Virus record (IMG/VR): IMGVR_UViG_2606217100_000005
From: a virus
Taxonomy: Duplodnaviria > Heunggongvirae > Uroviricota > Caudoviricetes
Length of the DNA stretch: 21,957 bases
Reading direction: 5' to 3' (one strand)
Shown here: positions 1,308-21,327 of the stretch, piece after piece
Numbering within the stretch: position 1 is the first letter of the stretch
Layout: every line of letters starts with the position of its first letter
Position numbers and translations under genes: made by a program
Notes under the pieces: generated by a model
What the model was told of the DNA's origin: nothing
The model's database searches: none
The model's input: the letters and a program-made list of their open reading frames with translations, nothing else

Positions 1308-2043
1308 TGGCGTAACTTCGTGAATTAGGATGGTAGCCCTATTTTGCCTTAAAGTTCCGCTTGTTACGAGCTTATACAGCGATTAATTATTATCTGATTT
1401 TAGTGTTTTCGTTCAGCTCAGCAAGTGCAATGACTCATGGGGTAAGTGCTTTGTAACAGGGTTGTTGATGTCAGTCGTTGGCCCTCAATGGAGTCACGGT
1501 CATAGGCATAATTGCTGTATAGCTGTTAATGTTTGTCTGGGTGAATTTCTACTATTCGGACTAACACCAAGTGAGTTCCATACTACATAACTGTGAGAAT
1601 TTTCTGTACCCTTCACTCTATCCTCTTCTTGCATATTTACAGGAAGATAAAGCAAAAGATACAAAACTTTGTAATCAAAAAACTGTCTTAATGTACTTAC
1701 ATCACGTTTAGTTATTAAATTTTTTGTCATGGTGAAAATTTTTACTTGGTCATTAAAATTCATCGGGTGTTAATATTCTAAACGAATAGGATGTCAAGCT
1801 AAAATGATGTGTCAAGTTGTTTGTAAAGTGAGAGGTTTATTTTTGGAAGAAATGCTTAAGAGAAGTATATATGATATTTGCCTGAATATAATTATTGATA
1901 TGCAAGGTTGGCAGAGGTTTTCTTTCTTTTCTAACCGAAGGGAAGAAAAGCAAGGGGAACTCGAAGAAGCAAGCGCAGCGGCTTCGCAGAGTTAGCCCTT
2001 GCTTCTCTTATAATTGGCATTATTCATTCAAGAACAATAGGAT

Positions 2044-2063
2044 CTTCGCTTGTACAAGCGAAG
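2044..2063. repeat. 20-bp perfect palindrome CTTCGCTTGTACAAGCGAAG in AT-rich non-coding tract
   Basis: Read directly: CTTCGCTTGT is the reverse complement of ACAAGCGAAG. Related GCGAAG/CTTCGC motifs occur nearby (about 1964-2007). No adjacent T-run, so not an obvious terminator. Confidence 0.8.
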
Positions 2064-2718
2064 CTATAATAAAAACAATCAATTAATTATTTTTAAAGTA
2101 TTAAACAAGAACCTATTGACATTCATAAAATACAAGTTATTTATAATGTATGCCATAAATAAAAAGTTTTATGTCATATGTATCCTGCACTATGTGCAGT
2201 TAATGTACCACTTGTCCCATAGATGGGAATATTGGAAAGGTTACTTTGTTTTGAAGTAGCCTTTCGTCCTTCAATATTAACGATTACTTATTGCTATTAC
2301 CAAGTCCAGTCGAATCGAAGAACATCTTTTATCTGAAACGACTCCTAATACCCGGTTAAAGCCACAATATCTCTCGCATACGTAGACCAAAGAAAAATTA
2401 TGATATTAAATATGTGATTTTTTTTAGTGTTAAGTTGAATAATTAAATACTGGAGAGTTTTCTGTGCACTACCAATTGCTGGTTCATCTGTTCTGCCGCT
2501 GATGTTTCTGACGAATCTCCCGGTGACACAGAACTGTCCCTCTCTACCAGCCTTTATTCGACTCAATGTCCGGCTGCTGATACGCAGTTATCCCTTCGTA
2601 TCAATGACTTACACTTAAACGTAATGCTTTGGTTGCTGGCGTATCTGACAGCTTCTTCGGCGTGAAGGTCGTTGTGTAAGTATACTTCTTGGTTTATTTA
2701 GGCTATATAAAACCATGA

Positions 2719-3615
2719 CTATGACTTGCTGTTTTCAGTAAGAGTCTTATCATCCAAAGAATTTATTCTAGAAATTCTTTTTAACTCATTAAGATAATCA
2801 ACCTCGTTTTCTAAGAACCAATGAAGAACTTTAGAATTGCCAAGTAATTTATTAATATATGACTGGATTATAACGAATTTCAACATATCTGAACCATACT
2901 CGGTTTGAAGCTTTTTCGTTTCTTCCGAAGTTGTTGCCATTTCTTGTTCCAGACGAAGTATGGTTTTTTTTATGTCCTTTTTATAGGGAGTGTTTTTCCC
3001 TTTATTTACTATCATCGATGCCGGTGTTGCATCCAAGATGCTCATTGCAAATTTTTTACTATAATTATCAAAATTAATCATTGTACCGACTGCTTCAATT
3101 TGGCGAATTGGCTTCATTTTCCTCAAAACGTCAAATGTAGCCTTAGGTATAGGTTTATCAGAAAGTTTCGCAATTACACTTGAATCTATGCCGTTCATCA
3201 CATTCGCTTTATCTTTTATGGCATCAACAGATATGCCCAAAGCAGCACTAAGTTTTTCAATTGATACTTTTGCCAGAGACTTAATTATCATTCTATGTTC
3301 TTCAACTACATTTATATGATTCACTTGTTTGTTAGGAGTGAAAGCATCATCTATGCTCGAAAGTATACATGGAGCTTTTTCTATACCTAAGTCTTTTAAA
3401 GCCTCAACCCTTAAATGGCCATCAAGTATCTTAGTGACATCTTTATCTTTGTCATAGAATACTATTATTGGTTCAATAATACCTAAGCTTTCGATAGAGG
3501 TAACTATTTGATGATATTTATGGCTTCGCTTTACGTTTTCTAATAATTCCTTAGATGGAATTAACTTATTAGTTTCCAGGTAAATAAAATTATCGCCAAA
3601 ACGTATCTGAATCAT
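2719..3615 (-). CDS. ParB-like N-terminal domain protein (paralog B), 298 aa
   Basis: ORF with ATGA stop/start overlap to the upstream gene. Motif ...IIEPIIVFYD...KILDGHLRVEALKDLG... resembles the ParB/Spo0J N-domain arginine-finger box (GERRxRA / DGQHR-like). AT-rich codon usage. Confidence 0.7.
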   Translation of the reverse strand: MIQIRFGDNFIYLETNKLIPSKELLENVKRSHKYHQIVTSIESLGIIEPIIVFYDKDKDVTKILDGHLRVEALKDLGIEKAPCILSSIDDAFTPNKQVNHINVVEEHRMIIKSLAKVSIEKLSAALGISVDAIKDKANVMNGIDSSVIAKLSDKPIPKATFDVLRKMKPIRQIEAVGTMINFDNYSKKFAMSILDATPASMIVNKGKNTPYKKDIKKTILRLEQEMATTSEETKKLQTEYGSDMLKFVIIQSYINKLLGNSKVLHWFLENEVDYLNELKRISRINSLDDKTLTENSKS

Positions 3616-4508
3616 TTTAATACCTCTTTGTTTACTGGGGTTAATATCTGAGATGGTAGTTCTGAAAGATTCTCTTGTTCAAGTATATGTTGAAAGCTTT
3701 TATTCATCATTATGATGTTAAAAATCTCATTTACTATTAGTAGGTTGGTTTTTATGAATTTTGAGTTGTTATAAACAGATTTATGTTCAGCGATACTATT
3801 TTCATAAAGCTCAATCAACTCCTCTGCAGTCATCCTTTTTGATGGTTTGTGATAATAAAATCCGGCTGCTTTTGCACCTTTATTCCCAACTGTTCTTTGA
3901 TTTAGAATGTGTTTTATCTTTATAATGTCCCGACTTTTTATTAATTTTTTATCATATGCTTCGGTAAGAATATCTTGTGCTTCCTCAGTTTCACATCTTG
4001 CAAATTGCACTGCGAGATACAGAGGCAAATTACCCCGTTCGACTGCTGAGAGAAGTTTATGCTCTCCCTTATCAAGTAGCATATTAATACTGCTCACCCA
4101 GTTCGATGAATATCCAGTAATCTCACTTATTTCGGAGTCTGAAAGTCCTCTGATTTTCATGTCTTTAATCACCTGTAATAACTCATTAGAACGTGGTCTT
4201 CTCCTTGCAATGTTTTCAACTAAACTCATAACGTAAGCATCTTCTTCTGATACATCTCTTATAATTGCTGGAATAATAGTTTCACCTAATGCAACGAGAG
4301 CCTCTATTCTCCCTTGACCACAAATTAAAGCATATTTGAAATCGCCTTCATCAATAGCTCTTACGCTTATAGGCTTGCTTAATCCTCTTTTTTTTATGCT
4401 TTCCTTTATTTCTTCATGCACTACCTTATTTCTTGTTCGTGGGTTAAGAAATTTTATTTTTGCAATCTCAATTTGAATTATTGGGAATTCATTTTTTTCA
4501 GGCAGCAT
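3612..4508 (-). CDS. ParB/Spo0J-like protein with central HTH (paralog A), 298 aa
   Basis: N-terminus IIQIEIAKIKFLNPRTRNK...SKPISVRAIDEGDFKYALICGQGRIEALVALGETIIPAIIRDVSEED follows the ParB N-domain pattern; followed by an HTH-like segment GLSDSEISEITGYSSNWV. Overlaps the recombinase gene by 11 nt. Confidence 0.7.
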   Translation of the reverse strand: MLPEKNEFPIIQIEIAKIKFLNPRTRNKVVHEEIKESIKKRGLSKPISVRAIDEGDFKYALICGQGRIEALVALGETIIPAIIRDVSEEDAYVMSLVENIARRRPRSNELLQVIKDMKIRGLSDSEISEITGYSSNWVSSINMLLDKGEHKLLSAVERGNLPLYLAVQFARCETEEAQDILTEAYDKKLIKSRDIIKIKHILNQRTVGNKGAKAAGFYYHKPSKRMTAEELIELYENSIAEHKSVYNNSKFIKTNLLIVNEIFNIIMMNKSFQHILEQENLSELPSQILTPVNKEVLK

Positions 4509-6054
4509 ATAGTTCCCTCACTTTCATGCGAGTAATAATTTGTAGAAGTTTATCAAGATTATCAAATCTATAGAGATCTAATCGAATGTTGTTTGTTTCC
4601 GTCATGCACATTTTATTATATTCGTTTTCAATCTTTGGTATGATATAAAAATCAAGAGGTGAAATATTTTGTGAATTCATTCGTATAACAATTGTTATGT
4701 CTGCTTTCTGTGAGTTATCAAACCGGACTTTCCATCTAAGTTTACCTGATTTCATATGTATGCATTTAGTAACAAGGACGGAAATTAAAAACTCATCATT
4801 GATGTAAAGCATTGGGGCATATTTATACTCGTCTATATGACAGTTACTTTTTAAAATTTCACCCTTAAAATCCTCAATTATCTCTGAGTAAAATGATCTT
4901 AGTGCTTCATTTATTTTGAGATAGCTGTAATCATGTTCTGGCTTATAACCAATCAAAGTATATGCTCTTAAAAGACCACCAAATCGGGTTCTATAAACAG
5001 AAGATGAAGGGCCTGTATCATCTTCATCAATGATAAAGCCTGATAGTTTTCCATTAGATTCTAATTTTTGTTTTAGTTTTTCTAATAGATCTTCATTAGT
5101 CAAATGAATGGATCGGAGCTGAATTATTTCTTGAGCTTTATTGTATTTTTTCTTTGAAATAATAGGTTTATATGCCTTGTCACATCTAACCCATTCATGT
5201 TTGGGGTTTTTTACAAGCCTACTTTTTAATTTAGATGAGGTTTTGTTATATATGTTGTTTCCAATATATTTTTCATTTGTCAAAATTTGATGTATTTTTG
5301 CACGAGTCCATAATGTTCCATTTTCTGCAGGTATGTTCTGTTCATTTAATCTCTCAGCAATAATGAATTCTGGGACGTTATTATCTATAAAGAGATCATA
5401 TATTCTATTTACAATTTTTATTTCATTTTTTGGTCCCGGAATTAATATTACCCTATCTGTTTGAATACTCTTTCTTTTGCGGAAACTCAATATTTCTTTA
5501 GCTATGCCATTTTCGTCTACTAAAAGACGTCTCAGCCCATAACCAGCCATACCGCCTTGATGATAACCAAGCTTTATTAAATTTACTTGCCCTATAAATA
5601 CCTTTTCAGATAGATTCCTGCTGTGATATGCAGCACTAGATCTTTTTATATTCAGTATAACAGAGGACTCTAAAGGGAAATCTTTAGTGGGTATAGGTTC
5701 GGAACAATATATAAGATCTACACCATTTCTCTCAAATAGAAAGGAATAATATGCCGCTTCATCACTATTTTGAAAACGACCAAAACGGCTCACATCATAA
5801 AATAATACAGCCTGTATATCTATTTTCTTTTGTTCTACATCGCTAAGTAACTGCTGCAAAGAATGCCTGCCTACGATACTGACTCCGCTCTTACCTGCAT
5901 CATCGTAGGTATAAGCGATTTCCATATTGTTCTTTTCAGCATAATCTTTGATATATTCGGACTGATTATGTAAAGAATATTGCTGATGGTCGGTAGACAT
6001 CCTCAAGTACTGCGCGACCCTAACTCTATGATTTTTTTCATTTTCGCTAGCCAT
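4498..6054 (-). CDS. Large serine recombinase (resolvase/integrase family), 518 aa
   Basis: N-terminal VAQYLRMSTDHQ motif (catalytic serine context of resolvase-family enzymes) followed by a long C-terminal extension typical of large serine recombinases; ATG start with GAGG upstream. Confidence 0.85.
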   Translation of the reverse strand: MASENEKNHRVRVAQYLRMSTDHQQYSLHNQSEYIKDYAEKNNMEIAYTYDDAGKSGVSIVGRHSLQQLLSDVEQKKIDIQAVLFYDVSRFGRFQNSDEAAYYSFLFERNGVDLIYCSEPIPTKDFPLESSVILNIKRSSAAYHSRNLSEKVFIGQVNLIKLGYHQGGMAGYGLRRLLVDENGIAKEILSFRKRKSIQTDRVILIPGPKNEIKIVNRIYDLFIDNNVPEFIIAERLNEQNIPAENGTLWTRAKIHQILTNEKYIGNNIYNKTSSKLKSRLVKNPKHEWVRCDKAYKPIISKKKYNKAQEIIQLRSIHLTNEDLLEKLKQKLESNGKLSGFIIDEDDTGPSSSVYRTRFGGLLRAYTLIGYKPEHDYSYLKINEALRSFYSEIIEDFKGEILKSNCHIDEYKYAPMLYINDEFLISVLVTKCIHMKSGKLRWKVRFDNSQKADITIVIRMNSQNISPLDFYIIPKIENEYNKMCMTETNNIRLDLYRFDNLDKLLQIITRMKVRELYAA

Positions 6055-6336
6055 GCACGAAACCTCATGGATGATTCAATACAATGTAGTGGATAAAATT
6101 GATCAAATTTTAACCGAATTCAACTGTTTTATCATTGATTAGAGCGAATTTGGTAGATCTTCGAGGTGTATGATAATCGAGAAGAGATGTGAATTATTTA
6201 GCTGATATGACCGACAGCTTTCGTTATGTGGACTCAATGTCCCCATTTGTAAATGGCTATGCTTAGTCCACATAGGTTAATGGTGTGATTATTAATTCTT
6301 TAACTAAATCAAGATAGTTAATCCATCATGGGAGAG

Positions 6337-7566
6337 TTATGCGGCAATAACTTTGCATTTTTGAGACGAAACATAGTCACTCCACCATTGCATGAGAACC
6401 ACCCGTTCAGTGAGATACTCTGCACGATTGTAGGCTGCAATTATTTCATCTTTCTTCGAGTGGGCAAGGGCGGCTTCTAAGACATCAGTCCTAAACTTGC
6501 CAGACTCCTCAGCAGCCGTTCTAGCAATGGATCGCATACCGTGAGCTACAAGCTCACCTCCGAAACCCATACGGATTATGGCCGCATTAGCTGTTTGTTC
6601 ATGCATGTGATTGAGTGGAGCTTTGATACTGGGGAACACCCACTCTCTATGCCCGCTGATGACTTTCATTAAATCCAAAACTCGCAAAGCTTCTTTGCTC
6701 AGTGGAACTTTGTGAGGCTTCTTCATTTTCATAAACTCCGCCGGGATGTTCCACATGCCAGTTTCAATATCAATATCTGACCATCTTGTGCGAACAGCTT
6801 CACCTGGGCGAACCCATGTGAGAAGTTGCCACTCAATCAGTAGCCTTGTTTCCAAACGGATAGAAGCATTGTTTAGAGCAACCAAGAAGCGAGGGAGTTC
6901 GGAAGGGGGTAATGCTGGCATATTCTGTTTTTTTGGCTTGCTGAACCGTTGCCCCAGGTTGTCTGCCGGGTTGAATTCTATGAGTTCTTCTGTTGCTGCA
7001 TAGCGGAAAATTTCATTCAGGCGGGATATGATGCGGCGAAGTGTTTCAAGGACACCTCGTTTTTCTATGGGTTCTAAATGCTGTTTAAGCATTTTAGGGC
7101 GAATCTCCTTAATTGGGGTATCACCCAATGTGGAAAAGATATTTCTCTCTAGGCTTCGCCAGATGTCGTTAGCATGATCTTGGGAGATGCCTGACGTTTT
7201 GACTTTCTCATCAAGCCACTTCTTGGCTACTGCTTGAAATGTATGTTCCGTGGCATCTTTCAGTGCATTGGCTTTTTGGTTGTTATGAACTTGGGGGTCT
7301 ATACCATTTGTAAGCAACGACAAGTATTCATCACGTAAAGCTCGTGCCTTCGCAAGTGTAAGGTGAGGATAGGTTCCTAAGCTCACCTTAGTTCGCTTTT
7401 TGGTCACAGGCACTGCATATCTGAAATACCAATTTTTCTTCCCTCCCTTCGCCAGGGGAGCGATTCGCAACAGCAAACCATCGCCGTCAAAAAGGTTAAC
7501 CTCTTTTTCGGCAGGTTTGGTGCTTTTGATTTCAGTGTCAGTGAGCTTCTTAGCGATTTTGGCCAT
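6337..7566 (-). CDS. Tyrosine integrase, P4/CP4-57 (IntA-like) family, 409 aa; ORF extends to 7647 but the ATG at 7566 is preferred
   Basis: N-terminus MAKIAKKLTDTEIKSTKP...LFDGDGLLLRIAP is the P4-type arm-binding domain; C-terminal HGMRSIARTAA...AYNRAEYL holds the catalytic tyrosine region. Lies next to the ssrA 3'-end repeat in the same orientation as int follows ssrA in E. coli K-12. Confidence 0.85.
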   Translation of the reverse strand: MAKIAKKLTDTEIKSTKPAEKEVNLFDGDGLLLRIAPLAKGGKKNWYFRYAVPVTKKRTKVSLGTYPHLTLAKARALRDEYLSLLTNGIDPQVHNNQKANALKDATEHTFQAVAKKWLDEKVKTSGISQDHANDIWRSLERNIFSTLGDTPIKEIRPKMLKQHLEPIEKRGVLETLRRIISRLNEIFRYAATEELIEFNPADNLGQRFSKPKKQNMPALPPSELPRFLVALNNASIRLETRLLIEWQLLTWVRPGEAVRTRWSDIDIETGMWNIPAEFMKMKKPHKVPLSKEALRVLDLMKVISGHREWVFPSIKAPLNHMHEQTANAAIIRMGFGGELVAHGMRSIARTAAEESGKFRTDVLEAALAHSKKDEIIAAYNRAEYLTERVVLMQWWSDYVSSQKCKVIAA

Positions 7567-7663
7567 GTTTGGGACCCTCGATTTTAGGACCCATCTTCGT
7601 GGGTCCCATTCAGGGTGCCATAACTCGTAGTTCTCAGCAATTCTCACTAGACTACAATAGACG

Positions 7664-7697
7664 TAAAAAAGCCCGCAGAGCTTGTGCTGTGCGGGCT
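7664..7697 (-). terminator. Intrinsic terminator (minus strand) between att repeat and integrase
   Basis: On the minus strand, stem AGCCCGCA...UGCGGGCU followed by UUUUUU (plus strand AAAAAAGCCCGCAGAGCTTGTGCTGTGCGGGCT). Confidence 0.6.
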
Positions 7698-7731
7698 TAG
7701 TAGACTTTACTGAACTTCAGTACATCAATAT

Positions 7732-7763
7732 TTGGTGGAGCTGGCGGGAGTTGAACCCGTGTC
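7732..7763 (-). repeat. 32-bp direct repeat of the ssrA 3' end (att core), 31/32 identical to 21556-21587
   Basis: TGGTGGAGCTGGCGGGAGTTGAACCCGtGTCC here versus TGGTGGAGCTGGCGGGAGTTGAACCCGcGTCC at the true ssrA 3' end; sequence diverges after this point. Confidence 0.9.
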
Positions 7764-7973
7764 CATAGTTATGTAATTCATTGAATTTAAATAGCCAAAT
7801 ATTGTTGATTTTACAAGCGGCTCTTTTGCGGAACTTTTTCTGTCCTGTTACTGTCTTACTATTTATTTTAAAATAGTTTCATTTGGAATTAATGGTTTGT
7901 GGTTGCAGTTTCGGAGATAGATAGCATTTTTTGCTAAAAAATATTTTTATAAAAAATGTGTGTAAAAATGATG

Positions 7974-7996
7974 TTATGCACAGATTTATGCACAGA
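7974..7996 (+). promoter_or_regulatory. Two tandem DnaA-box-like 9-mers TTATGCACA (consensus TTATNCACA), with a third inverted near-match at 8020-8028
   Basis: TTATGCACAGA t TTATGCACAGA read directly; reverse strand of 8020-8028 reads TTATCCAAA. About 200 bp upstream of the 8191 ORF. Function not established. Confidence 0.3.
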
Positions 7997-8190
7997 GGCT
8001 TTGTGATAAACCAGATTGTTTTGGATAAGTTTGTTTTTTTGTGATTTGTCAACAATATTATTGACTCTTGTTACTAAAGTGAGTGTTTTCTAAGGTGGTC
8101 AGAAGTTGTCCCTTCATGTAATCTTATTAGCCATAAAGAACAAAAAATAATTCAACATCATTACCAACTATTTGTAAGATAAGGTTTTTA

Positions 8191-9006
8191 ATGTTGCAAC
8201 CAGCAAAAAAAGCATCAGTTATTAGCGCGCGGCTAACTAAATACCTCAAAGATGGAGTGAGGATTGATGACTTTAGCTTTAGAAGGATGTTACGTGAGAT
8301 TGAAGCACTTAGAGATCCTGTCTCTGAGGACTATCTTTTAGCGTTGGTCTATGGTGCACATGGCCAAGTGAATGAGGCGATAGGCTTCTTTGAGCGTTCC
8401 TTGCAGGTATGCCATAATGAGGTTGTTGCAAAGAATTTTCTTGTTTTCTTGTCAGATTACGGTACGTTGAAGAAAAGCTTTGAAACAAGCATTAAGCTTG
8501 CTGAAAGCTTCATATCCCCGTTTATTTATCTTCAAGCTTATGAAAACTCCCTCTTTATGGGGAAGATGGCGTTGGCGGAGAAGTATTTCCAGTCATACTC
8601 TAAATTGTTCGGAGATAAGGAGCCTGAAAAAATGGACAACAATCTTGATGAAGTTGTTTCCCAGGTCGAATCCTTTAAGCAACGTGCCGATCTTTCTGGT
8701 TTAGAATATGAACTTATTTTCAATAATGTAGCCAATGTCATGGATTCTCAGAAGGTTCATCTTTCGGGAATGCGTTTTTATAATATTTCGGAAGAGAAAG
8801 TGAATGCGATTGTATTCATGACAAAGTCTTCTGATGCTGAACAAATCGCTGATATGAATATTGAGCTTGCTTTTTCAATGGCTGAGCACGATTGTTTAGT
8901 CGGTAAAGATTTTGCTGTTTGGTTTGAATGTAAAGACACACATATTGAGCAGAATGCTATCTCCGAATTAGGTCTGATTACCCGGAGGGTTGCACATGCC
9001 GGTTAA
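8191..9006 (+). CDS. Hypothetical protein, 271 aa (no family recognised)
   Basis: Long ORF with ATG start and AAGG upstream; predicted helical, AT-rich; its last 11 nt overlap the next ORF. Confidence 0.6.
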   Translation: MLQPAKKASVISARLTKYLKDGVRIDDFSFRRMLREIEALRDPVSEDYLLALVYGAHGQVNEAIGFFERSLQVCHNEVVAKNFLVFLSDYGTLKKSFETSIKLAESFISPFIYLQAYENSLFMGKMALAEKYFQSYSKLFGDKEPEKMDNNLDEVVSQVESFKQRADLSGLEYELIFNNVANVMDSQKVHLSGMRFYNISEEKVNAIVFMTKSSDAEQIADMNIELAFSMAEHDCLVGKDFAVWFECKDTHIEQNAISELGLITRRVAHAG

Positions 9007-9379
9007 TAGTCAAGATTTTCTCGGTTTTGCAAAAGACTGTCATCAACGTAATGACGAAATCGGCTATCGAAATGCTATAGCAAGATCCTACTATGGCGCT
9101 TACCATCATGTCTTGCCTTGTATGGTAAACGGGCCGAAAGACAGTCATCAGGGGCTAATCAATTATTTGCAGGGCGATGCTTCAAGAGGAAGTGAAGTAT
9201 ATGAAGCTAGATATCTAAAAGGGATTAGTTTTATCCTGAGTCAACTTAAAGCTCAGAGGATTGTTGCAGACTATCGACTTGATCAATCGGTCACTTCTAA
9301 ACAGTCTGAAGTTGCGATTCTAACAACTGAGAGGCTCTTTGCTAAGTGTACGGAAATGCTTAAATCGAGAGCCTCCTAA
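8996..9379 (+). CDS. Hypothetical protein, 127 aa from ATG 8996 (ORF opens at TTG 8990); contains an Rx6H motif (RSYYGAYH)
   Basis: GGAGGG lies 6 nt upstream of ATG 8996. The Rx4-6H pattern is the HEPN signature, but that assignment is speculative. Ends at an intrinsic terminator. Confidence 0.55.
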   Translation: MPVNSQDFLGFAKDCHQRNDEIGYRNAIARSYYGAYHHVLPCMVNGPKDSHQGLINYLQGDASRGSEVYEARYLKGISFILSQLKAQRIVADYRLDQSVTSKQSEVAILTTERLFAKCTEMLKSRAS

Positions 9380-9385
9380 TTGATA

Positions 9386-9411
9386 AAGCCACTTAAGTGG
9401 CTTTTTTTGTG
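9386..9411. terminator. Bidirectional intrinsic terminator (AAGCCACTTAAGTGGCTT + T-run)
   Basis: 18-bp palindrome followed by TTTTTGTG on the plus strand; the stop codon of the minus-strand int gene lies inside the stem. Confidence 0.7.
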
Positions 9412-10565
9412 ATATTGCTGGTCGTATTACCGTCATATTCCTTTAAATATGAACCATAATGACGAAATAACATTTCCGGCCCTTTATGCCCCATTTGAGC
9501 TGCAAGCCAAAACAGGTTTGCTCCCCGGCTGATATGGCGGGTGGCGAATGTATGCCTAGTTTGATATGGATTTCTGTAACGAATACCTGCTTTTCGCAAT
9601 GTTGGCACCCATGCTTTTTTCCTGATTGCATCAGCACTTGCCCAAGGCTTATTGGTCTTTGGATCTTCAAAGACAGTAGTATCCTTCATGAATGTAAATG
9701 GCTTCTGATTTATCAGCGCCAACATTGCCTCTTCTGTCAGTTCAACTTTCCGAGTACCTGCTTTTGTCTTTGTCCCTTTGATAACACCGACAACACTTGC
9801 GCTCTGGACATGGGCAGTTTTTCCAACAAAGTCGATATCACGCCATCGAAGGGCACATAATTCAGAACTACGCAGGCCTGTATGTATAGCGAACCGGAAC
9901 AGATTTTCCCATTGTTTGTTTCCGGCTGCTGCTAGTAATGCATCAACTTCTGCTGGTGATAGCGGATCAACTACGTAGCTGCTTTCTGCTTCTGACTTAT
10001 CACTTTGGTAGCGCGAAGCTGTTACTAACGATACGGGGTTAATTTGAAGTACCCCATCGGTCACGGCTTCATCAAGTGCTGACCGCAGGAAAGATAACTG
10101 GTTGCGAATTGTTTTTAAGGTCGTTTTCTGATTTTGAATCCACGCTTTCAGGGTTGCTGGTGTTAATTCACTTGCAGGGCAAATGTGAAGTGAGGCTAAC
10201 GCACTACGGCATTTTTTATAGCCACCAATCGTAGAGGGTGAAAGTTTTCTTGTTTCGCAGATTTCAAGATATTCGTCCAGGTACATCTTTACCGTTTTGC
10301 CTGCAGCAGCATTACCAAAAATTTTCAAACGAGCAGAACGGGGAAAATATTCTGCATAAATGAATGTTCCCCTTTCGATCTTATTATGGATTTCGCCGAG
10401 TGTACGCTCGGCGTATTTAATGTTCTTTGGTGTTACTTCCAGATTGGAAAGCGGCTCACGACATCTAACTCCTTTGTAGGTGAAAGTTATATTGATCGTT
10501 TCTCCCTGGCGGTGTTTCCTGATTGTTACGCCGCGCGGTAGTTTGAGCAGTTTTGTCTGGCCCAT
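9393..10565 (-). CDS. Tyrosine integrase, lambdoid type, 390 aa
   Basis: N-terminus MGQTKLLKLPRGVTIRKHRQGETINITFTYKGVRCRE (arm-binding domain of lambdoid integrases); C-terminal RHTFATRHISRGANLFWLAAQMGHKGPEMLFRHYGSY has the catalytic R/H/Y region. Confidence 0.85.
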   Translation of the reverse strand: MGQTKLLKLPRGVTIRKHRQGETINITFTYKGVRCREPLSNLEVTPKNIKYAERTLGEIHNKIERGTFIYAEYFPRSARLKIFGNAAAGKTVKMYLDEYLEICETRKLSPSTIGGYKKCRSALASLHICPASELTPATLKAWIQNQKTTLKTIRNQLSFLRSALDEAVTDGVLQINPVSLVTASRYQSDKSEAESSYVVDPLSPAEVDALLAAAGNKQWENLFRFAIHTGLRSSELCALRWRDIDFVGKTAHVQSASVVGVIKGTKTKAGTRKVELTEEAMLALINQKPFTFMKDTTVFEDPKTNKPWASADAIRKKAWVPTLRKAGIRYRNPYQTRHTFATRHISRGANLFWLAAQMGHKGPEMLFRHYGSYLKEYDGNTTSNITKKAT

Positions 10566-10771
10566 TTTGCAACCTCACTAAGATCAATCCACCTCTCCTT
10601 AACGCCTTCAACCTTTAAAACCTGAACACCTTCACGCCAAACACCGCGCTGTACACGTTTGTTTATTGCTTCAGGAGTTTCGCCAGTTTCTTTGCAATAA
10701 GTTGAGATAGGAACACAATCGAGGTTCAGCATACGTTTCTCCATTATCCCGTCTGCACACGGGAGCAACAT
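10526..10771 (-). CDS. Excisionase-like small DNA-binding protein; probable start at ATG 10732 (68 aa); overlaps int start by 40 nt
   Basis: Position and overlap with int are as in lambdoid xis-int pairs. GGAGAAA precedes the third in-frame ATG. Family assignment is by context and size, not a recognised motif. Confidence 0.5.
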   Translation of the reverse strand: MLLPCADGIMEKRMLNLDCVPISTYCKETGETPEAINKRVQRGVWREGVQVLKVEGVKERWIDLSEVAKWARQNCSNYRAA

Positions 10772-10773
10772 TA

Positions 10774-11640
10774 TTAACGAATAGTGTCGTTACTTTGAAG
10801 TACAGCAAATGCCATTAATACTTCTAAAGTATATCTTCTATAAAATTTAACAAAACCAACATAGAAAACATAGACGAAGAAAAAGCTAAGCATTATTGAA
10901 AGTAAACTATAAAGATAATCACTATGAGTACATAATCGATAAATAAAGGTTGGAACTGATACCCAAAATGAAATTATAAAGATTAAACATATGTTTCTGC
11001 AAAAACCATATAATGCAACATAGTTTTGAATTTTTGTTTGATGTTGTTTTGAAAACTCATAAACATAATGATATGCCAATCTGAAGAGATCATCATCAAG
11101 TCCGTTTTTATCTTGTAATAATTGGCGATTTGTTATGAACTTTTTCTCATAACCTTCTTTGATCATTAACCATGTTGTATTAGCTAAATGAAATGGTAGA
11201 GATTGAGAATAACATAGTTTTTGTGTTATAAAATCCCATAGTATTATTGGGCATAATACGCATTTGATTATGCGATTCTTTATTTTTGTTTTTTTATCAG
11301 CGCTTCTCTCATCGCATGATGGGCTACAAATGCTTTCTGAGGTATCTATCAATTTTTTAAATAGATATTTGGAAGGATATCCTAATTCTTTATTCATGTA
11401 TTTTTCGATAAAAAATGCTGACGTGATAGAAATAAAATGTCCAGCTATATAAGATATAATAACTATTGAAGCGTAGTTCAAAATGCCAAAGATTTGACTT
11501 TGACCTCTGAGCAATTCACTTAAGTCAATAACAATATCTAGATCGAATGTCAAACCACAGAAATACATTAATAGGATAAAAAAACCACCTGGTATTAAAT
11601 ATCCAAGAAAGTCATAGAATGAGAATGGATTTTGATTCAT
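10774..11640 (-). CDS. Polytopic membrane protein, 288 aa from ATG 11640 (ORF opens at TTG 11664)
   Basis: At least four hydrophobic helix-length segments (FLGYLIPGGFFILLMYFCGLTF, ILNYASIVIISYIAGHFISITSAFFI, ICLIFIISFWVSVPTFI, LLSIMLSFFFVYVFYVGFV). GGAGAG 5 nt upstream of the ATG. Strongly AT-rich compared with flanking prophage genes. Confidence 0.6.
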   Translation of the reverse strand: MNQNPFSFYDFLGYLIPGGFFILLMYFCGLTFDLDIVIDLSELLRGQSQIFGILNYASIVIISYIAGHFISITSAFFIEKYMNKELGYPSKYLFKKLIDTSESICSPSCDERSADKKTKIKNRIIKCVLCPIILWDFITQKLCYSQSLPFHLANTTWLMIKEGYEKKFITNRQLLQDKNGLDDDLFRLAYHYVYEFSKQHQTKIQNYVALYGFCRNICLIFIISFWVSVPTFIYRLCTHSDYLYSLLSIMLSFFFVYVFYVGFVKFYRRYTLEVLMAFAVLQSNDTIR

Positions 11641-11748
11641 TGTTGCTCTCCAATAATTTTTCAATTTGTAATATAACCTATATCTATATGTTAATAAATT
11701 ACTTATATGTTCTTTTATGGCAGAGTTTGAATTCGTACGTGCTGATTT

Positions 11749-12285
11749 TTACGACTCAGTTAACTCTTTAAAGCGTTCCATAAACATCCCATAGGTATGG
11801 CCTGGCGACAGTGGAATAACTTTGAACATCTCTGTTGCCGGGATACCTTCCAGTACGGGCCAGAAAGAGCCATCATCAAGCCCGAGATCGCGGCGTTCGG
11901 TTGCCAGCATGATGAGATCGGCATATTTCACGGGCGTACTCATAACCGGGGGTAACCCGTATTTCTCACGGATTACGGCGTCTATTTTTTCTTCCATCCG
12001 TTTATAGTCAGGAAGAAGGCGTTTCAGTGGAGCCGGGATGTCCTGGCAATACGCTTCTGTTGCATCATGCATTAACGCTTCAAAAGCAAATTCCTGCGGT
12101 ACCAGCTGGCTGCAAAGCACCGCATGTTGGGCGACGCTGTAGAAGTGTGAAAGATGGCCGGCAAAGCGACAGATATTTGAAAGGGAAACCGCGATATCGT
12201 TAATATCGATGTTGTCTTTATTTATCCTGTCATAATAAAAATGTTTCCCGGAAAAAGTTTTAATAAATGACATTTTGTTCTCCAC
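11749..12285 (-). CDS. yfdR: HD-domain phosphohydrolase, YfdR-like 5'-deoxynucleotidase; ATG at 12273, ORF opens at GTG 12285
   Basis: HD-domain residues (H...HAVL...MHDATEAY...D). Size and neighbourhood match the CPS-53 prophage yfdP-yfdQ-yfdR block as recalled. Confidence 0.65.
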   Translation of the reverse strand: MENKMSFIKTFSGKHFYYDRINKDNIDINDIAVSLSNICRFAGHLSHFYSVAQHAVLCSQLVPQEFAFEALMHDATEAYCQDIPAPLKRLLPDYKRMEEKIDAVIREKYGLPPVMSTPVKYADLIMLATERRDLGLDDGSFWPVLEGIPATEMFKVIPLSPGHTYGMFMERFKELTES

Positions 12286-12401: not shown

Positions 12402-13226
12402 TCAGGCGGTGAAAGTCCCAATAAAGGTTTCTACTTTGCTGTCCTTGAATTTCTCAACAAGCAGATCACGAAATTCGTTAGCCATATCTTCCTGCACCGC
12501 TTCCAGCTGAATAATGCGCAGAACCAGTACAGGACGATCGCCAGTGATAATGCTGAGGCGTAATTTAAACGGACGTTCTTTCAGACCTTCAAACGGAACG
12601 CATTTAAACTCAAATGCCACTGGCATAATGTCTTTGGTCTTCGCTTCGACAGACTCCATCAGGGAGCGTTTGCCGCTGAAGTCATTATCTTCAAAATCAG
12701 CAGTCTGGTTTGCTTCAATCGTGATTTTACGGACCGCCGCAGCCGCTTTTGTTGCCTGAATGGTGTCACCATTAGCATCAAAGCCCACAAGGTAGTCGGC
12801 CCAGTCTTCGATCCATTCTGCCAGTGACTTCTGGGAGTTACGCTCGCCGTTAACAGACAACAGAGCAGAGAACGGTGCTGTCTTTTTCAGTTTGAGAGTG
12901 GCAGTGTTATCTGCGTGACCTGGCTCATCAATAGTACCCAGGTTAAGCACACTGACGGCACGCATATTATCGGCATCGATAAAGCAGCGGGTGCCTTCAT
13001 CTGCAAGATCTTTAGAATAACGGGTAAAATCATCGATGCTGGCAGTGGAAAGTGCACCACGGAAACGGAAGCGATTTAAATTAAATTTTTCCAGATCATG
13101 AATGCGGAAATTCTCAGGCAATGCCACAGCATCGGCACCAATCTTACTGATAATTTCATTAACACCCTGAGCAGAAATAAGGGCATGGATTTGATTAATT
13201 GCGGTTGCGTCTAAGTTCTGAGACAT
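12402..13226 (-). CDS. yfdQ: Prophage early protein, YfdQ-like, 274 aa
   Basis: 274-aa ORF with GAGGA RBS, sitting between the YfdP-like and YfdR-like genes. Assignment is by size and synteny recall, not motif. Confidence 0.5.
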
Positions 13227-18283: not shown

Positions 18284-18644
18284 TCATTGCAAGGGCTCAC
18301 AACCAGTAGTGTTGAGAAAACCATCGGAGAAATGAGGCTAAGCCTTTGAATTTACATAGTACAAAAAAGATACTTTTCCTCATAATGTGAGCTAATTTTA
18401 TGTTTCGTTTGATGATTGGACCGGTCTCGAAAACCGTAGACACATAGTATGCGTTAATTTATGAACAAACTACTTGTCTGCTGTTTTTCTGTCATTAGTC
18501 GTATATAGAATGATTCTCTATGCCTAACAAAGCATCACCAGTGCTAGATTACGTTGTAGTCACTGTTTAAATATCCAGATAAAACATTTCCTTCTGGGTT
18601 GAATGAGTGATAAAGTTTCACCCATTAGACCCCTTGGAGGAATT

Positions 18645-20078
18645 ATGTCTGAATTTGAAGTGTTGGCACAGCATCTGCTGAAGGAAGCCGAGGCGGAAGA
18701 AAAGCTGCGACAGGAAAATGATAAAAAGCTTATCGAGAAAGTGCTGGAAATCTATGATCAGAAGTATGTGGCTGAATTACTGAGAAAAGTCGGAAAAAAT
18801 GAGTGGAGCCGTGAAACCATTAACCGCTGGATTAATGGCAAGTGTTTACCAAAATCGTTGACTTCAGTAGAAGAGTCTCTTCTGCGTAAGATGCTACCAG
18901 AACCACCTGCAAACCATCCGGAATATGCTTTCCGCTTCATTGACTTATTTGCTGGAATTGGAGGGATACGGAAAGGTTTTGAGGCCATTGGAGGCCAGTG
19001 TGTTTTTACCAGTGAATGGAATAAAGATGCTGTGCGTACATACAAGGCCAACTGGTTTAACGATGAACAGGTGCATAAATTCAATCTCGATATTCGGGAA
19101 GTCACGCTGAGTGATAAAACCGATGTATTGGAAACGGATGCTTATGCATATATTGATGAGCATGTGCCGGATCATGATGTGCTTCTTGCGGGGTTCCCGT
19201 GCCAGCCATTTAGCCTTGCTGGTGTTAGTAAGAAAAACTCACTTGGTCGTGCGCATGGTTTTGAATGTGAAGCACAAGGAACACTTTTTTTTGACGTGGC
19301 ACGTATTATACGAGCAAAAAAACCGGCAATTTTTGTGCTGGAAAATGTCAAAAATCTGAAGAGCCATGATAAGGGTAAAACTTTCAAAGTCATTATGGAG
19401 ACCCTTGACGAGCTGGGCTACGAAGTTGCCGATGCTGCAGAAATGGGAAAAAACGATCCAAAGATTATCGATGGGAAGCATTTTTTGCCTCAGCATCGTG
19501 AACGCATTGTTCTGGTCGGATTTAGACGAGATCTGAATATTCACAAGGGGTTTACCTTGCGTGATATCAGTCGTTTTTATCCGGAACACCGCCCATCATT
19601 TGGTGAATTGCTGGAGCCTGTAGTCGACAGTAAATATATACTTACGCCAAAACTATGGGAGTACCTTTATAACTACGCCAAAAAGCATGCAGCCAAGGGG
19701 AATGGTTTTGGCTTTGGGTTGGTCAATCCTGAGAATAAGGAAAGCATTGCACGCACACTTTCTGCCAGATATCACAAAGACGGATCAGAAATTCTTATTG
19801 ATCGTGGTTGGGATATGGCAACGGGAGAGGCTGACTTTATGAATGAGAGTAATCAGGCTCGTCGACCACGCAGGCTGACTCCCCGAGAGTGCGCACGCCT
19901 TATGGGATTTGAAAAACCTGGAGGGAAACCATTCCGTATTCCGGTTTCAGATACTCAGTCATATCGGCAGTTCGGTAACTCAGTTGTGGTGCCAGTATTT
20001 GAAGCTGTTGCCAGACTTCTGGAACCCTATATCCTCAAAGCTGTTTCTGCTGATGCTGGTAAGACTGGGCAGCCTTGA
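18645..20078 (+). CDS. DNA (cytosine-5) methyltransferase, Dcm/M.EcoRII family (CCWGG-type), 477 aa from ATG 18645 (ORF opens at 18603)
   Basis: Motif [19 protein letters not shown], motif [19 protein letters not shown], and a C-terminal [10 protein letters not shown]; extensive similarity to E. coli Dcm as recalled. GGAGG 5 nt upstream of ATG 18645. Confidence 0.9.
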
Positions 20079-20112: not shown

Positions 20113-21327
20113 CTATGATAGTTCAGCGTAAAGCTCTATCAGCTCAGTAATGAATGCTCCGAGCGTTATTAATTCTTCTCTAACTGCTTCTGGGTATTTT
20201 TTATGTAAAGTTGATGGTACAACGAGTCTGACACCCGCATCTTTCATTTCTCGGTATTGTGCTGAAGAAACACCTTCTTGCAGTGTAAATAAATGTACCT
20301 GATGGATTTTATCTGCTTCATTCAGTATCTGACGCCAGCGATCTTTGCAGGTGGTCTTTACTGCCAGCATACGTAAGTTTTCTACAGGAAATTCAACGTT
20401 ATGATATGCCTCTGCTGAAGGAAACAGGAAATCTGGTTTTTTATTACCTTCAGTAACTGCCTGAGTGGAGAAATGCCGTAGTCCGTGCTCGATAAAAAGC
20501 TTCTCTAGGTGAAGTTCAAGTGATTTGCCTGCCCTTGATTTACGTCGATTACTGACAGAGTTGGCTAATGCAATAAACTCATCTACAGAATCGAATCCTT
20601 TCTTAATAATATCAAGAACATGTAATTCCTCGACGAGTAGAAAAATATCATACTCGACACGCCGACGGTCAATCAGTTGCTCATCTGGATCCTTGGAGTT
20701 TTTAGCATAATGGCCAGCAGCATATTGAATAATTTCGTTTCCAGAAGGAAAACGCTTCTTCCAGTCTTCAGGAATAACATATTTATGATTTACTGGAGTT
20801 TGCTGAAGAGACAATCCGCCCAAAATTTGTCCGGCAGGGCCGGAAATTAGGGTTCCAGGTATGATTTCGCCAATAGCAGACTCGATGATATCCTCTTCAT
20901 CGGGATTGACGCAGACCCATATATCTACCTCGGAACAGTCAGTGTTCTGTTCGTTTAACCTGAAAGCAAGAATTGTGAGGGCTCCTGTATTTTCAGGGTT
21001 CTGTAATGGACTTCCTCTCCCCCAGCGCGTAATTCTTTTTTCGTTTCGGGTCTTACCAAAATAACGGTTGTTGTAATAAATTGCGCGTGCTTGGGTATCA
21101 GGGCAATCATGGGATGATACATGCGCAGTAAGGAAGACTGAAGGGTTCAGTTCGCGAGTATGATTGATAGATGGAAAAAGCTTTTCAACGATATTTGAGG
21201 GGATATAAAGTCCGACCTGATGGCCACCTGTTGCGCCTGTGTCGTTTGCAGAAAGGCGTTTGATGTAGATAAAGTAATTCCCGCTTGCGATATCAAGCAG
21301 CCAGTTATGAAAAACCGACATATACAT
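20113..21327 (-). CDS. EcoRII-like type IIE restriction endonuclease, 402-404 aa
   Basis: Convergent with the Dcm-family methyltransferase; length and N-terminus (M)SVFHNWLL...YIKRLSANDTGATGGHQVGLYIPS match EcoRII as recalled. Confidence 0.75.
   Translation of the reverse strand: MYMSVFHNWLLDIASGNYFIYIKRLSANDTGATGGHQVGLYIPSNIVEKLFPSINHTRELNPSVFLTAHVSSHDCPDTQARAIYYNNRYFGKTRNEKRITRWGRGSPLQNPENTGALTILAFRLNEQNTDCSEVDIWVCVNPDEEDIIESAIGEIIPGTLISGPAGQILGGLSLQQTPVNHKYVIPEDWKKRFPSGNEIIQYAAGHYAKNSKDPDEQLIDRRRVEYDIFLLVEELHVLDIIKKGFDSVDEFIALANSVSNRRKSRAGKSLELHLEKLFIEHGLRHFSTQAVTEGNKKPDFLFPSAEAYHNVEFPVENLRMLAVKTTCKDRWRQILNEADKIHQVHLFTLQEGVSSAQYREMKDAGVRLVVPSTLHKKYPEAVREELITLGAFITELIELYAELS

Follow-up and report, generated by a model that had tools for sequence, protein, structure and literature searches.

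Csx27, a small membrane protein of type VI-B1 CRISPR loci, has been described since 2016 as a modulator of Cas13b, and is reported to repress Cas13b interference in E. coli by up to 1e5-fold, across orthologues too. According to papers that cite it (PMC7642515, PMC11662929), Makarova et al. 2019 placed Csx27 in an 'expansive' family of four-transmembrane (4TM) proteins predicted to form inner-membrane channels for single-stranded DNA, and linked that family to competence genes (DprA/ComF), ubiquitin-like E1/E2/JAB proteins and WYL-HTH regulators. A literature search returned neither a mechanism nor a structure for Csx27 in accessible papers, and descriptions of the wider family are purely computational. 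We analysed a 21,957-nucleotide stretch of Caudoviricetes DNA (IMG/VR record IMGVR_UViG_2606217100_000005; hereafter, the window), and describe here a gene on its minus strand whose predicted product, of 288 amino acids (aa), is a distant relative of Csx27. The gene lies in a prophage between a yfdR-like gene and the xis-int module, and temperate phages repeatedly carry it as optional cargo. By analogy with other membrane proteins of immune systems, its most likely role would be that of a gated membrane effector for phage exclusion, a reading to which we give a probability of roughly 0.4.

Relationship to Csx27 and membrane architecture

The window protein belongs to a large family whose members are annotated 'hypothetical' in all sources. 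A profile search of 1.84 billion representative sequences recovered 935 clusters (50% identity) at E≤1e-3, with 200 at E≤1e-30. Nearly all members are 260–320 aa long, and the genomes represented include Gamma-, Beta- and Deltaproteobacteria and many Bacteroidota, as well as Bacillota, Chloroflexota and Acidobacteriota, among others. The RefSeq counterpart in the E. coli type strain, WP_001075212.1, is labelled 'hypothetical protein', and the PHROGs entry, phrog_12528, is listed as being of unknown function. A Pfam scan of the window protein returned zero families at E≤10. The PADLOC model of Csx27 matched the protein over residues 6–268 (E=1.4e-5), the sole other PADLOC match being tm_4.

Because transmembrane (TM) proteins can match one another spuriously, we made four further homology tests. 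Among 140 family members, 99 matched the PADLOC Csx27 model (best 2.2e-10) and 32 the tm_4 model, while 25 matched CAS_Csx27 of NCBIfam (best 2e-6). For comparison with type VI-B reference loci, metagenome contigs were retrieved by the degenerate repeat GTTG-N12-TTTTGRRRGG-N5-ACAAC, which brought up many type VI-B arrays; a direct repeat attributed to B. zoohelcum, searched exactly, gave zero metagenome matches. In the reverse search, the hidden Markov model of the family picked five open reading frames (ORFs) of 206–259 aa in these VI-B loci (E=3.5e-10 to 9e-5), all of which were verified as Csx27 by NCBIfam (113–209 bits; cut-off 65). In three of the contigs (L104, L105 and L217) the gene beside Csx27 is Cas13b by NCBIfam (748–850 bits); L115 and L184 are short contigs with a VI-B-type array, in which Cas13b was not found. 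Together, these five contigs make a useful reference set. Alignment of the family with the five Csx27 proteins by hhalign gave a probability of 95.1% (E=3.1e-8), and covered the motif before the third TM helix (pre-TM3), TM3, TM4 and the FYR motif.

Three motifs are common to the family and Csx27: an N-terminal FSxYDF..PG, which reads K-F-S-L-Y-D-F-x-x-F-x-L-P-G in Csx27; a pre-TM3 DLF..YxYxE...K..Q..Y.F.RN, for which the Csx27 counterpart is DDLFDxAYYYLEYHDKIxTAKxFQSMYFFLRN; and FYR after TM4, found as FYRxKMV at the C-terminus of Csx27. Based on these sequence comparisons, we conclude that homology links the family to bona fide type VI-B1 Csx27, and that the window protein is a distant relative. 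The protein is nevertheless not Csx27 proper, because its match to NCBIfam NF040557 (CAS_Csx27) reaches only 14.9 bits (E=0.02, N-terminal 39 residues only) against a cut-off of 65, because cas13b and a CRISPR array are absent, and because it has a ~80-aa longer insert. No ORF in the window exceeds 518 aa, and we found neither a Cas13b-like ORF nor a CRISPR array in 78 related loci.

An initial annotation made from the window sequence had treated the protein as belonging to no recognised family. That statement was wrong: it is a Csx27 homologue with a PHROGs entry (12528), and its relative in P2-like phages is catalogued within system #3 of Rousset et al. 2022 (see below). The analogies with SieB and Rex-type proteins drawn in the same annotation fail at the level of homology. 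Comparison with a RexB-like 4TM protein by hhalign gave a probability of 0.1%, with no Rex match in PADLOC or Pfam, and SieB and other superinfection-exclusion families were likewise absent from the Pfam matches at E≤10 and from PADLOC, where only Csx27 and tm_4 matched.

Kyte-Doolittle hydropathy of the window protein showed four TM-length segments (residue limits in Table 1), the second and third being separated by a K/R-rich stretch of ~130 residues. The AlphaFold2 model is all-helical (predicted local distance difference test 90.8; predicted template-modelling score 0.89), and its long helices match the four hydropathy segments, consistent with the earlier description of a polytopic protein with at least four TM segments. 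Across the family, the insert and the C-terminus have a K+R density of 0.14–0.15, and the two loops one of 0.07. Since the positive-inside rule thus holds family-wide, we predict that both termini are cytoplasmic (N-in/C-in).

We next consider an alignment of 140 diverse members (25–78% identity). Invariant or near-invariant positions comprise the N-terminal motif; Y64, G67, H68, S74 and E79 on one face of TM2; Y-P-S 88–90, P131, H191, H200, K203, N206-Y-V-A-L-Y-G-F and R215; and F263, K265, F-Y-R-R, E273 and M276. All of them map to those ends of the four TM helices that are predicted to be cytoplasmic. In TM2, the conserved residues form a polar stripe, Y64-G67-H68-S71-S74-(E79), along one helical face of the cytoplasmic half. 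The variable positions are those of the periplasmic helix halves, both periplasmic loops and residues 95–180, and the insert is variable apart from YPS 88–90 and P131. Selection between the window allele and a second E. coli allele (78% aa identity) differs between segments: dN/dS is 0.02–0.08 in the conserved motifs, TM2 and TM4, 0.26 in insert residues 87–130, 0.6 in TM3, and ~1.2 over 25 codons around the periplasmic TM3-TM4 loop (residues 226–250). The last value is a hint of fast evolution rather than a test of it. Overall, the model and the alignment predict a four-TM, N-in/C-in protein with a conserved, cytoplasm-facing polar core and a variable insert and loops.

Structural searches returned no clear relative. 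The best Foldseek match in the Protein Data Bank (PDB) was MotA, at E=0.6 and a TM-score of 0.16; MotA is the top match, but non-significant, and we rejected a MotA-like identity. No structural match was found among the viral models of BFVD, and a sequence-profile search of all PDB chains gave only noise (IP3 receptor, E=0.16). Because the family is large and has no Pfam model or structural neighbour, it is a candidate new membrane-protein fold or family.

A conserved polar site of this kind could also belong to a membrane enzyme whose substrate, a lipid or a lipid-linked precursor of the envelope, is reached from the cytoplasmic face, in which case the gene would serve lysogenic conversion and affect phage adsorption or entry indirectly. 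D10, Y14, Y64, H68, E79, H191, E195, H200, K203, N206, R215, K265 and E273 cluster at the cytoplasmic interface in an active-site-like manner, and across phyla the purifying selection on the core is very strong. Serotype-converting genes classically adjoin phage int/att, and a minority of the neighbours of chromosomal family members are polysaccharide-synthesis genes (glycosyltransferase family 2, GT2, three times; WecG twice; GT1 twice; epimerases). However, we found no sequence or fold similarity to known acyl-, glycosyl- or phosphotransferases or hydrolases; the polysaccharide neighbours occur at fewer than about 10 of 78 loci, with no GtrA/GtrB-type partner; and Csx27, the CRISPR-associated homologue, has no obvious envelope role. 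We consider an enzymatic function improbable.

A cargo gene of temperate phages

The 288-codon ORF and its own ribosome-binding site, both of which had been noted initially, were confirmed, with GGAGAG placed 5 nt before the ATG; the initial annotation had not given the strand, which is minus. An in-frame TTG upstream, at 11664, would lengthen the product by eight residues, to 296 aa; we take the ATG, from which the coordinates are counted, as the true start because all homologues begin MNQNPFS. The GC content of the gene is 0.28, against 0.44–0.47 in int, xis, yfdR and yfdQ, and its GC content at third codon positions (GC3) is 0.22, against 0.38–0.50 in the same genes and cI. This difference in GC3 bears out the earlier remark on AT-rich codon usage, and indicates a codon-level sign of foreign origin beyond a composition rich in F, I, L, Y and K. 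The low-GC block (27–30%) is confined exactly to 10774–11748, that is, from the stop codon of the gene to that of yfdR, the 108-nt spacer included; both sides are at 43–51%. An open frame of 288 codons in 28% GC DNA has 593 database relatives at E≤1e-3, and the overall dN/dS against the 78% allele is 0.24. We conclude that the gene is real and horizontally acquired, far beyond a chance ORF.

These data also bear on the idea that the gene encodes a housekeeping transporter, or is a spurious or non-functional ORF, for which only the polytopic membrane character speaks. The initial annotation had named homology to a transporter or housekeeping membrane protein as an outcome that would count against its proposal; we looked for such homology and found none, with no transporter family at E≤10 in Pfam. 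The gene is phage-borne, its allele is sporadic among complete E. coli genomes (205/5426), and both its strong conservation pattern and the dN/dS of 0.24 argue for a functional product. We regard this explanation as barely credible, and a housekeeping transporter as excluded.

The slot between xis and the yfdR-like gene is as first described, except that the label 'xis' is positional only, because ORF 10526–10771 has no Pfam or other family match. The exact allele is carried by 205 of 5426 complete E. coli genomes, and the adjacent yfdR by 2971. In sister prophages, the same int/xis and yfdR flanks enclose two small phage genes instead; in other relatives, the slot is occupied by yfdS/yfdT, DUF551, a 3'-5' exonuclease or a methyltransferase. 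The gene is thus foreign cargo in a variable prophage slot, and the suggestion of later acquisition is supported by the changing slot contents as well as by the low GC3. The second E. coli allele occupies the same yfdR context (L085, 8001–8867). The two alleles are 98–100% identical in DNA over the spacer and the first ~45 codons, and then diverge, which places a recombination junction inside the coding sequence; the spacer at 11641–11748 is 100% identical in loci with the 78% allele, and the DNA downstream of the alleles is unrelated. Divergence between the alleles is highest at residues 87–130 and 226–250. In E. coli loci L085–L090, near lexA/dinF/plsB, the 78% allele lies in a prophage remnant without an integrase (yfdPQR, the gene, and a PrtN-like gene), and a gene for a SocA/Panacea-domain protein, typical of toxin-antitoxin antitoxins, is ~1 kb from it.

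Among 71 viral loci from IMG/VR, ~53 have the gene directly upstream of a small xis/exc gene and an integrase gene, with all three on one strand; five are yfdR-gene-PrtN remnants, and seven are P2-type cassettes. The gene upstream is yfdR (112 nt away) or a cI repressor gene (380–1050 nt away), and Klebsiella phage P7641 has the same layout. The adjoining xis-int modules fall into at least four lineages that are <30% identical to one another. We rejected a single co-diverging gene-xis-int module: between L259 and L261, the gene is 85% identical and the integrase 22%. Because the gene does not co-diverge with the xis-int lineages, its position as the last gene before xis is conserved despite shuffling of the modules. 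Overall, temperate phages repeatedly carry the gene as optional cargo.

The same position is consistent with an accessory factor that works at the membrane in the carrier phage's own development, acting on host physiology or division, lysis timing or protection of the induced cell, with no part in conflict between phages. Retention before xis-int in at least four int/xis lineages without co-divergence suggests selected co-expression with excision, and the adjacent yfdPQR are annotated as early-left host-interaction genes. Against this, the gene is dispensable, being present in 205 of 2971 yfdR-bearing genomes, and it also occurs as part of a two-gene unit in the P2 accessory hotspot and at many non-phage chromosomal sites. 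We do not expect this explanation to hold.

We found no terminator between the gene and xis in the window, and only weak promoter-like hexamers before the gene in a scan of this AT-rich DNA. In L091, a lambdoid prophage integrated at icd, a sigma-70-like site (10/12) lies ~110 nt before the gene (7861–7888). This prophage has ~800 nt between cI and the gene (7204–8000), with no ORF of 42 aa or more and five scattered ORFs of 31–41 aa. Following cI are a terminator-like hairpin (7225–7252), a palindrome (7264–7289) that resembles the cI-cro operator palindrome (6490–6523), and a 26-nt inverted repeat (7359–7384/7509–7534). The region could be an oL/pL-plus-leader region or a non-coding RNA.

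Chromosomal copies of the gene are solitary. Six genes on each side were clustered by BLAST for 78 loci across phyla; no neighbour was common to more than four loci, and no conserved partner gene was found. By Pfam, 139 immediate neighbours fell into 102 families, and 150 second or third neighbours into 124, with no dominant theme. The commonest were integrases (4), GT2 (3), the ribonucleotide reductase small subunit (3), a few polysaccharide genes, and type I restriction-modification (R-M) S subunits (2). This census bears on the proposal attributed to Makarova et al. 2019, known to us second-hand, by which the protein would be a DNA-translocation channel affecting DNA uptake or the passage of phage genomes. 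Four TM helices with a K/R-rich cytoplasmic domain (average 18 K+R) could bind nucleic acid, and the fast-evolving periplasmic loop could touch incoming phage components. However, partners of the kind linked to that family were found in fewer than two of the ~290 neighbours scanned for each of DprA/ComF, ubiquitin-like E1/E2/JAB and WYL-HTH, with none reaching two among either the 139 adjacent genes (±1) or the 150 further out (±2/3), and E. coli lacks natural competence in the sense that matters here. A DNA channel therefore strikes us as a rather remote prospect.

A homologue in P2-like phages (280 aa; 42% identity by tblastn) lies between the portal gene gpQ and gpA. The P2 gpA-gpQ locus, home of old and tin, has been validated as a defence hotspot (Rousset et al. 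2022, PMC9122126). In Table S5B of that study, the family protein is protein 2 ('4 TM') of system #3, 'DUF4760', with 1102 occurrences, and its sequence bears all of the family motifs. Phage vB_EcoM-705R2 has the same cassette (5464–6843) between gpQ and gpA, and so do 7 IMG/VR contigs. The gene for DUF4760 (165 aa, 1 TM) ends 39 nt upstream of the Csx27-like gene, on the same strand, and by tblastn DUF4760 was found at P2-type loci only, with nothing in the window or at any non-P2 locus. The cassette must have its own promoter. Note that the GenBank record of vB_EcoM-705R2 (ON470623) has two minus-strand hypothetical genes at 5448–5961, where the plus strand encodes the 165-aa DUF4760 protein. 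The DefensePredictor supplement flags longer DUF4760 proteins as predicted to be defensive and as relatives of PD-lambda-6; in the part of it that we examined, the Csx27-like family was not found. P2 and P4 satellites have a common cos-adjacent hotspot architecture, and 6 of 8 randomly chosen P4 hotspot loci of unknown function proved defensive (PMC13586616).

A further cassette of the P2 hotspot, system #34 in Table S5B of Rousset et al. 2022 (Lactamase_B + 4TM), encodes a 162-aa 4TM protein with an N-terminus, SSYNIFNNLFPGA, that resembles the family motif. Alignment with the family by hhalign gave a probability of 30% (E=5e-4) over TM1-TM2. Because this similarity is weak, we left the protein out of the family; it may be a second Csx27/tm_4-like protein of this hotspot, very distantly related.

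Candidate function

We favour, at the probability given above, a gated membrane effector for phage exclusion. The protein would oligomerise in the inner membrane. There, a gated core that conducts ions or permeabilises the membrane would arise from the conserved cytoplasm-facing polar cavity, to which four elements contribute: the N-terminal motif, the Y64/H68/S74/E79 stripe of TM2, the pre-TM3 motif (H191-R215) and the C-terminal motif (K265-E273). What triggers it would depend on the variable insert in the cytoplasm and on the fast-evolving loop in the periplasm, and activation would come at infection by a competitor or during the carrier phage's own early development. The result might be perturbed membrane energisation, of the abortive-infection type, or a block to genome entry; the competitor would be excluded either way.

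The exclusion or abortive-infection role proposed in the initial annotation gains circumstantial support from the homology to Csx27 and from the P2 old/tin hotspot. Three considerations lead us to our reading. Membrane proteins that accompany CRISPR and other defence systems usually act as effectors. Defence genes abound in the P2 hotspot, and most of the P4-satellite hotspot loci of unknown function that have been tested were defensive. Lastly, the contrast between a conserved core and a variable periphery suggests an effector-plus-specificity design. An example of such an effector is Csx28, a pore that depolarises the membrane (PMC12669027) and that consists of one TM helix and a HEPN-like domain, assembled as an octamer.

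Several observations weigh against a role as an exclusion effector. Csx27 itself is reported to repress, not to enhance, Cas13b interference. A PADLOC scan of the window protein gave no match to any validated system, the fold searches returned no channel or pore match, and the main text of Rousset et al. 2022 makes no mention of the DUF4760 + 4TM cassette. In a PADLOC scan of the 139 immediate chromosomal neighbours, type I R-M (2 loci) and mad5 (2 loci) were the only systems found, with no defence-island enrichment. The deep cross-phylum conservation of the polar cytoplasmic site also fits an enzyme. Moreover, the absence of a terminator before xis and the weakness of the upstream promoter-like hexamers fit expression from the early-left operon on induction better than expression in the lysogen.

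Some of these points would suit a modulator of immunity or dormancy, that is, a counter-defence protein that damps a membrane-linked suicide or dormancy response of the host, or another immune effector, and whose early expression from the leftward operon would let the phage complete its development once induced or after infection. The repression of Cas13b by Csx27 is the main precedent, and CorA in VI-B/RT systems acts similarly. The gene is co-oriented with xis-int and directly upstream of it, with no terminator between, and several phages have no other sizeable gene between cI and xis, which suggests that it is expressed on induction. Early-left regions of lambdoid phages are known for genes of host takeover and anti-restriction, and the chromosomal relatives lie outside defence islands. 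However, E. coli lacks type VI CRISPR, so the target must differ; the repression by Csx27 was observed solely under heterologous over-expression; the P2 gpA-gpQ locus is known for defence genes and not for anti-defence genes; and solitary chromosomal copies in many non-phage contexts would be odd for phage counter-defence. We judge a modulator unlikely, although it is the leading alternative.

Within the exclusion-effector reading, a broader proposal can be made, which we hold to be possible but doubtful: long-form solitary Csx27-like proteins would be single-gene immune effectors that combine sensor (the variable cytoplasmic insert or the periplasmic loop) and effector (the conserved polar core) in one 4TM protein of new fold and are used by temperate phages against competitors, and type VI-B1 systems would have captured a shortened version as Csx27. 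If this is true, work on the E. coli gene would yield the first function and mechanism known for the Csx27 superfamily, and likewise for the third commonest cassette in the P2 hotspot. Apart from this proposal, one family links three items not connected before: a CRISPR accessory protein, the 'DUF4760 + 4TM' cassette of >1000 P2-like prophages, and the recurrent last gene before xis in lambdoid prophages. As a single-gene Csx27 relative native to E. coli, the window gene would, given a phenotype, make the mechanism of the superfamily testable in a standard host with standard phages; if it has no phenotype, it is an ordinary uncharacterised phage moron.

Surroundings of the gene and comparison with described systems

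The features of the gene, its product and its flanks are collected in Table 1. A LexA/S24-type repressor gene lies farther along the same prophage.

Table 1. Positions in the window of the gene, the predicted elements of its product, and the flanking genes.
Feature	Position	Strand	Basis
Csx27-superfamily coding sequence, 288 aa + stop; predicted four-TM inner-membrane protein	10774..11640	-	ORF, homologues, hydropathy, model, hhalign
C-terminal cytoplasmic amphipathic helix (predicted), (F)-x-K-F-Y-R-R-x-x-L-E-x-x-M, K265 invariant	10777..10845	-	alignment, hhalign
TM4 (predicted), about residues 243-265	10846..10914	-	hydropathy, AlphaFold2
Short periplasmic TM3-TM4 loop (predicted), residues 238-242	10915..10929	-	AlphaFold2, dN/dS
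TM3 (predicted), about residues 217-237	10930..10992	-	hydropathy, AlphaFold2
Pre-TM3 signature D-x-F-R-x-x-Y-H-Y-x-x-E-x-x-x-x-H-x-x-K-x-Q-N-Y-V-A-L-Y-G-F-x-R, residues 184-216	10993..11091	-	alignment; dN/dS 0.02
Cytoplasmic helical insert (predicted), residues 80-183, K/R-rich, ~80 aa longer than that of Csx27	11092..11403	-	hydropathy, alignments
TM2 (predicted), about residues 52-78	11407..11487	-	hydropathy, alignment
TM1 (predicted), about residues 11-31	11548..11610	-	hydropathy, AlphaFold2
N-terminal signature N-P-F-S-x-Y-D-F-L-G-Y-x-x-P-G, residues 4-18, cytoplasmic start of TM1	11587..11631	-	family alignment; NCBIfam Csx27 match residues 5-43
Shine-Dalgarno sequence GGAGAG, 5 nt before ATG	11646..11651	-	read directly from sequence
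AT-rich spacer, 108 nt, 26% GC, yfdR stop to gene; weak promoter-like hexamers only, no terminator	11641..11748	-	sequence scan
Tyrosine integrase, Arm-DNA-bind_2 + Phage_integrase	9393..10565	-	Pfam domains
Small xis-position ORF; RefSeq version shorter (68 aa); overlaps int start	10526..10771	-	position
YfdR-like HD-domain 5'-deoxynucleotidase, upstream gene of leftward operon	11749..12285	-	domain match, annotation
DUF2303/YfdQ	12402..13226		domain match, annotation

Other cargo was observed elsewhere in the window. The prophage contains a convergent type II R-M pair, consisting of a C5 DNA methyltransferase gene (18603–20078, plus strand; PADLOC MTase_II, E=4e-230) and a restriction endonuclease gene (20113–21327, minus strand; E=9e-234). 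A second AT-rich island covers 1400–6200 (30–37% GC; GC3 0.26–0.28). It contains three overlapping minus-strand ORFs in an operon-like arrangement (2719–3615, 3612–4508 and 4498–6054; 298, 298 and 518 aa), adjoined by a P4-type integrase gene (6337–7647). The only match of these ORFs was a weak N-terminal methyltransferase match in the first, with no known defence system, and the three may be island cargo of an uncharacterised kind. An overlapping plus-strand pair just beyond the prophage integrase encodes proteins of 271 aa (8191–9006), with a sub-threshold TPR match, and 129 aa (8990–9379), in which the stretch 'RSYYGAYHH' (R-x6-H) is HEPN-like by eye; Pfam and PADLOC gave no match for either protein. 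Because E. coli ATCC 11775 has a different cassette at this position, including a STAS-like protein, the prophage end near 8191–9379 is another variable slot.

With respect to earlier work, the Csx27 family itself and the catalogued P2 cassette are already known. We did not find the solitary long form before xis-int described in the searchable literature, Makarova et al. 2019 being compared through the papers that cite it, and literature searches on WP_001075212.1, 'Csx27-like'/'Csx27 family' and DUF4760 returned nothing relevant.

Among described systems, the phage exclusion proteins P22 SieA, lambda SieB, lactococcal Sie2009 and T4 Imm are likewise dispensable inner-membrane proteins encoded at accessory loci near the integration or immunity region. 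Their distribution is narrow, whereas the family described here extends over many phyla and keeps a cytoplasmic motif that is deeply conserved. Stator-type proton channels (MotA/ExbB/TolQ) have the same layout of two TM helices, a cytoplasmic domain and two further TM helices, but the fold comparison did not reveal similarity to them. Csx28, RexB and the TM effectors of CBASS and Pycsar are also small inner-membrane proteins tied to immunity, and membrane depolarisation as the output is our working analogy; they differ from the window protein in having no sequence or fold relationship to it, and it has no identified sensor partner. P2 system #3 is closer, since its 4TM component belongs to the same family and is also phage-borne accessory cargo; that component is paired with DUF4760 at the gpA-gpQ site, whereas the window gene is unpartnered and lies between yfdR and xis. 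Csx27 has four TM helices arranged 2+2 around a cytoplasmic segment, as predicted for the window protein. It is shorter, at ~206–229 aa against 288 aa, the extra length here being a larger and more variable cytoplasmic insert, and it is found in CRISPR loci of Bacteroidota, whereas its long-form relative resides in a prophage of Proteobacteria.

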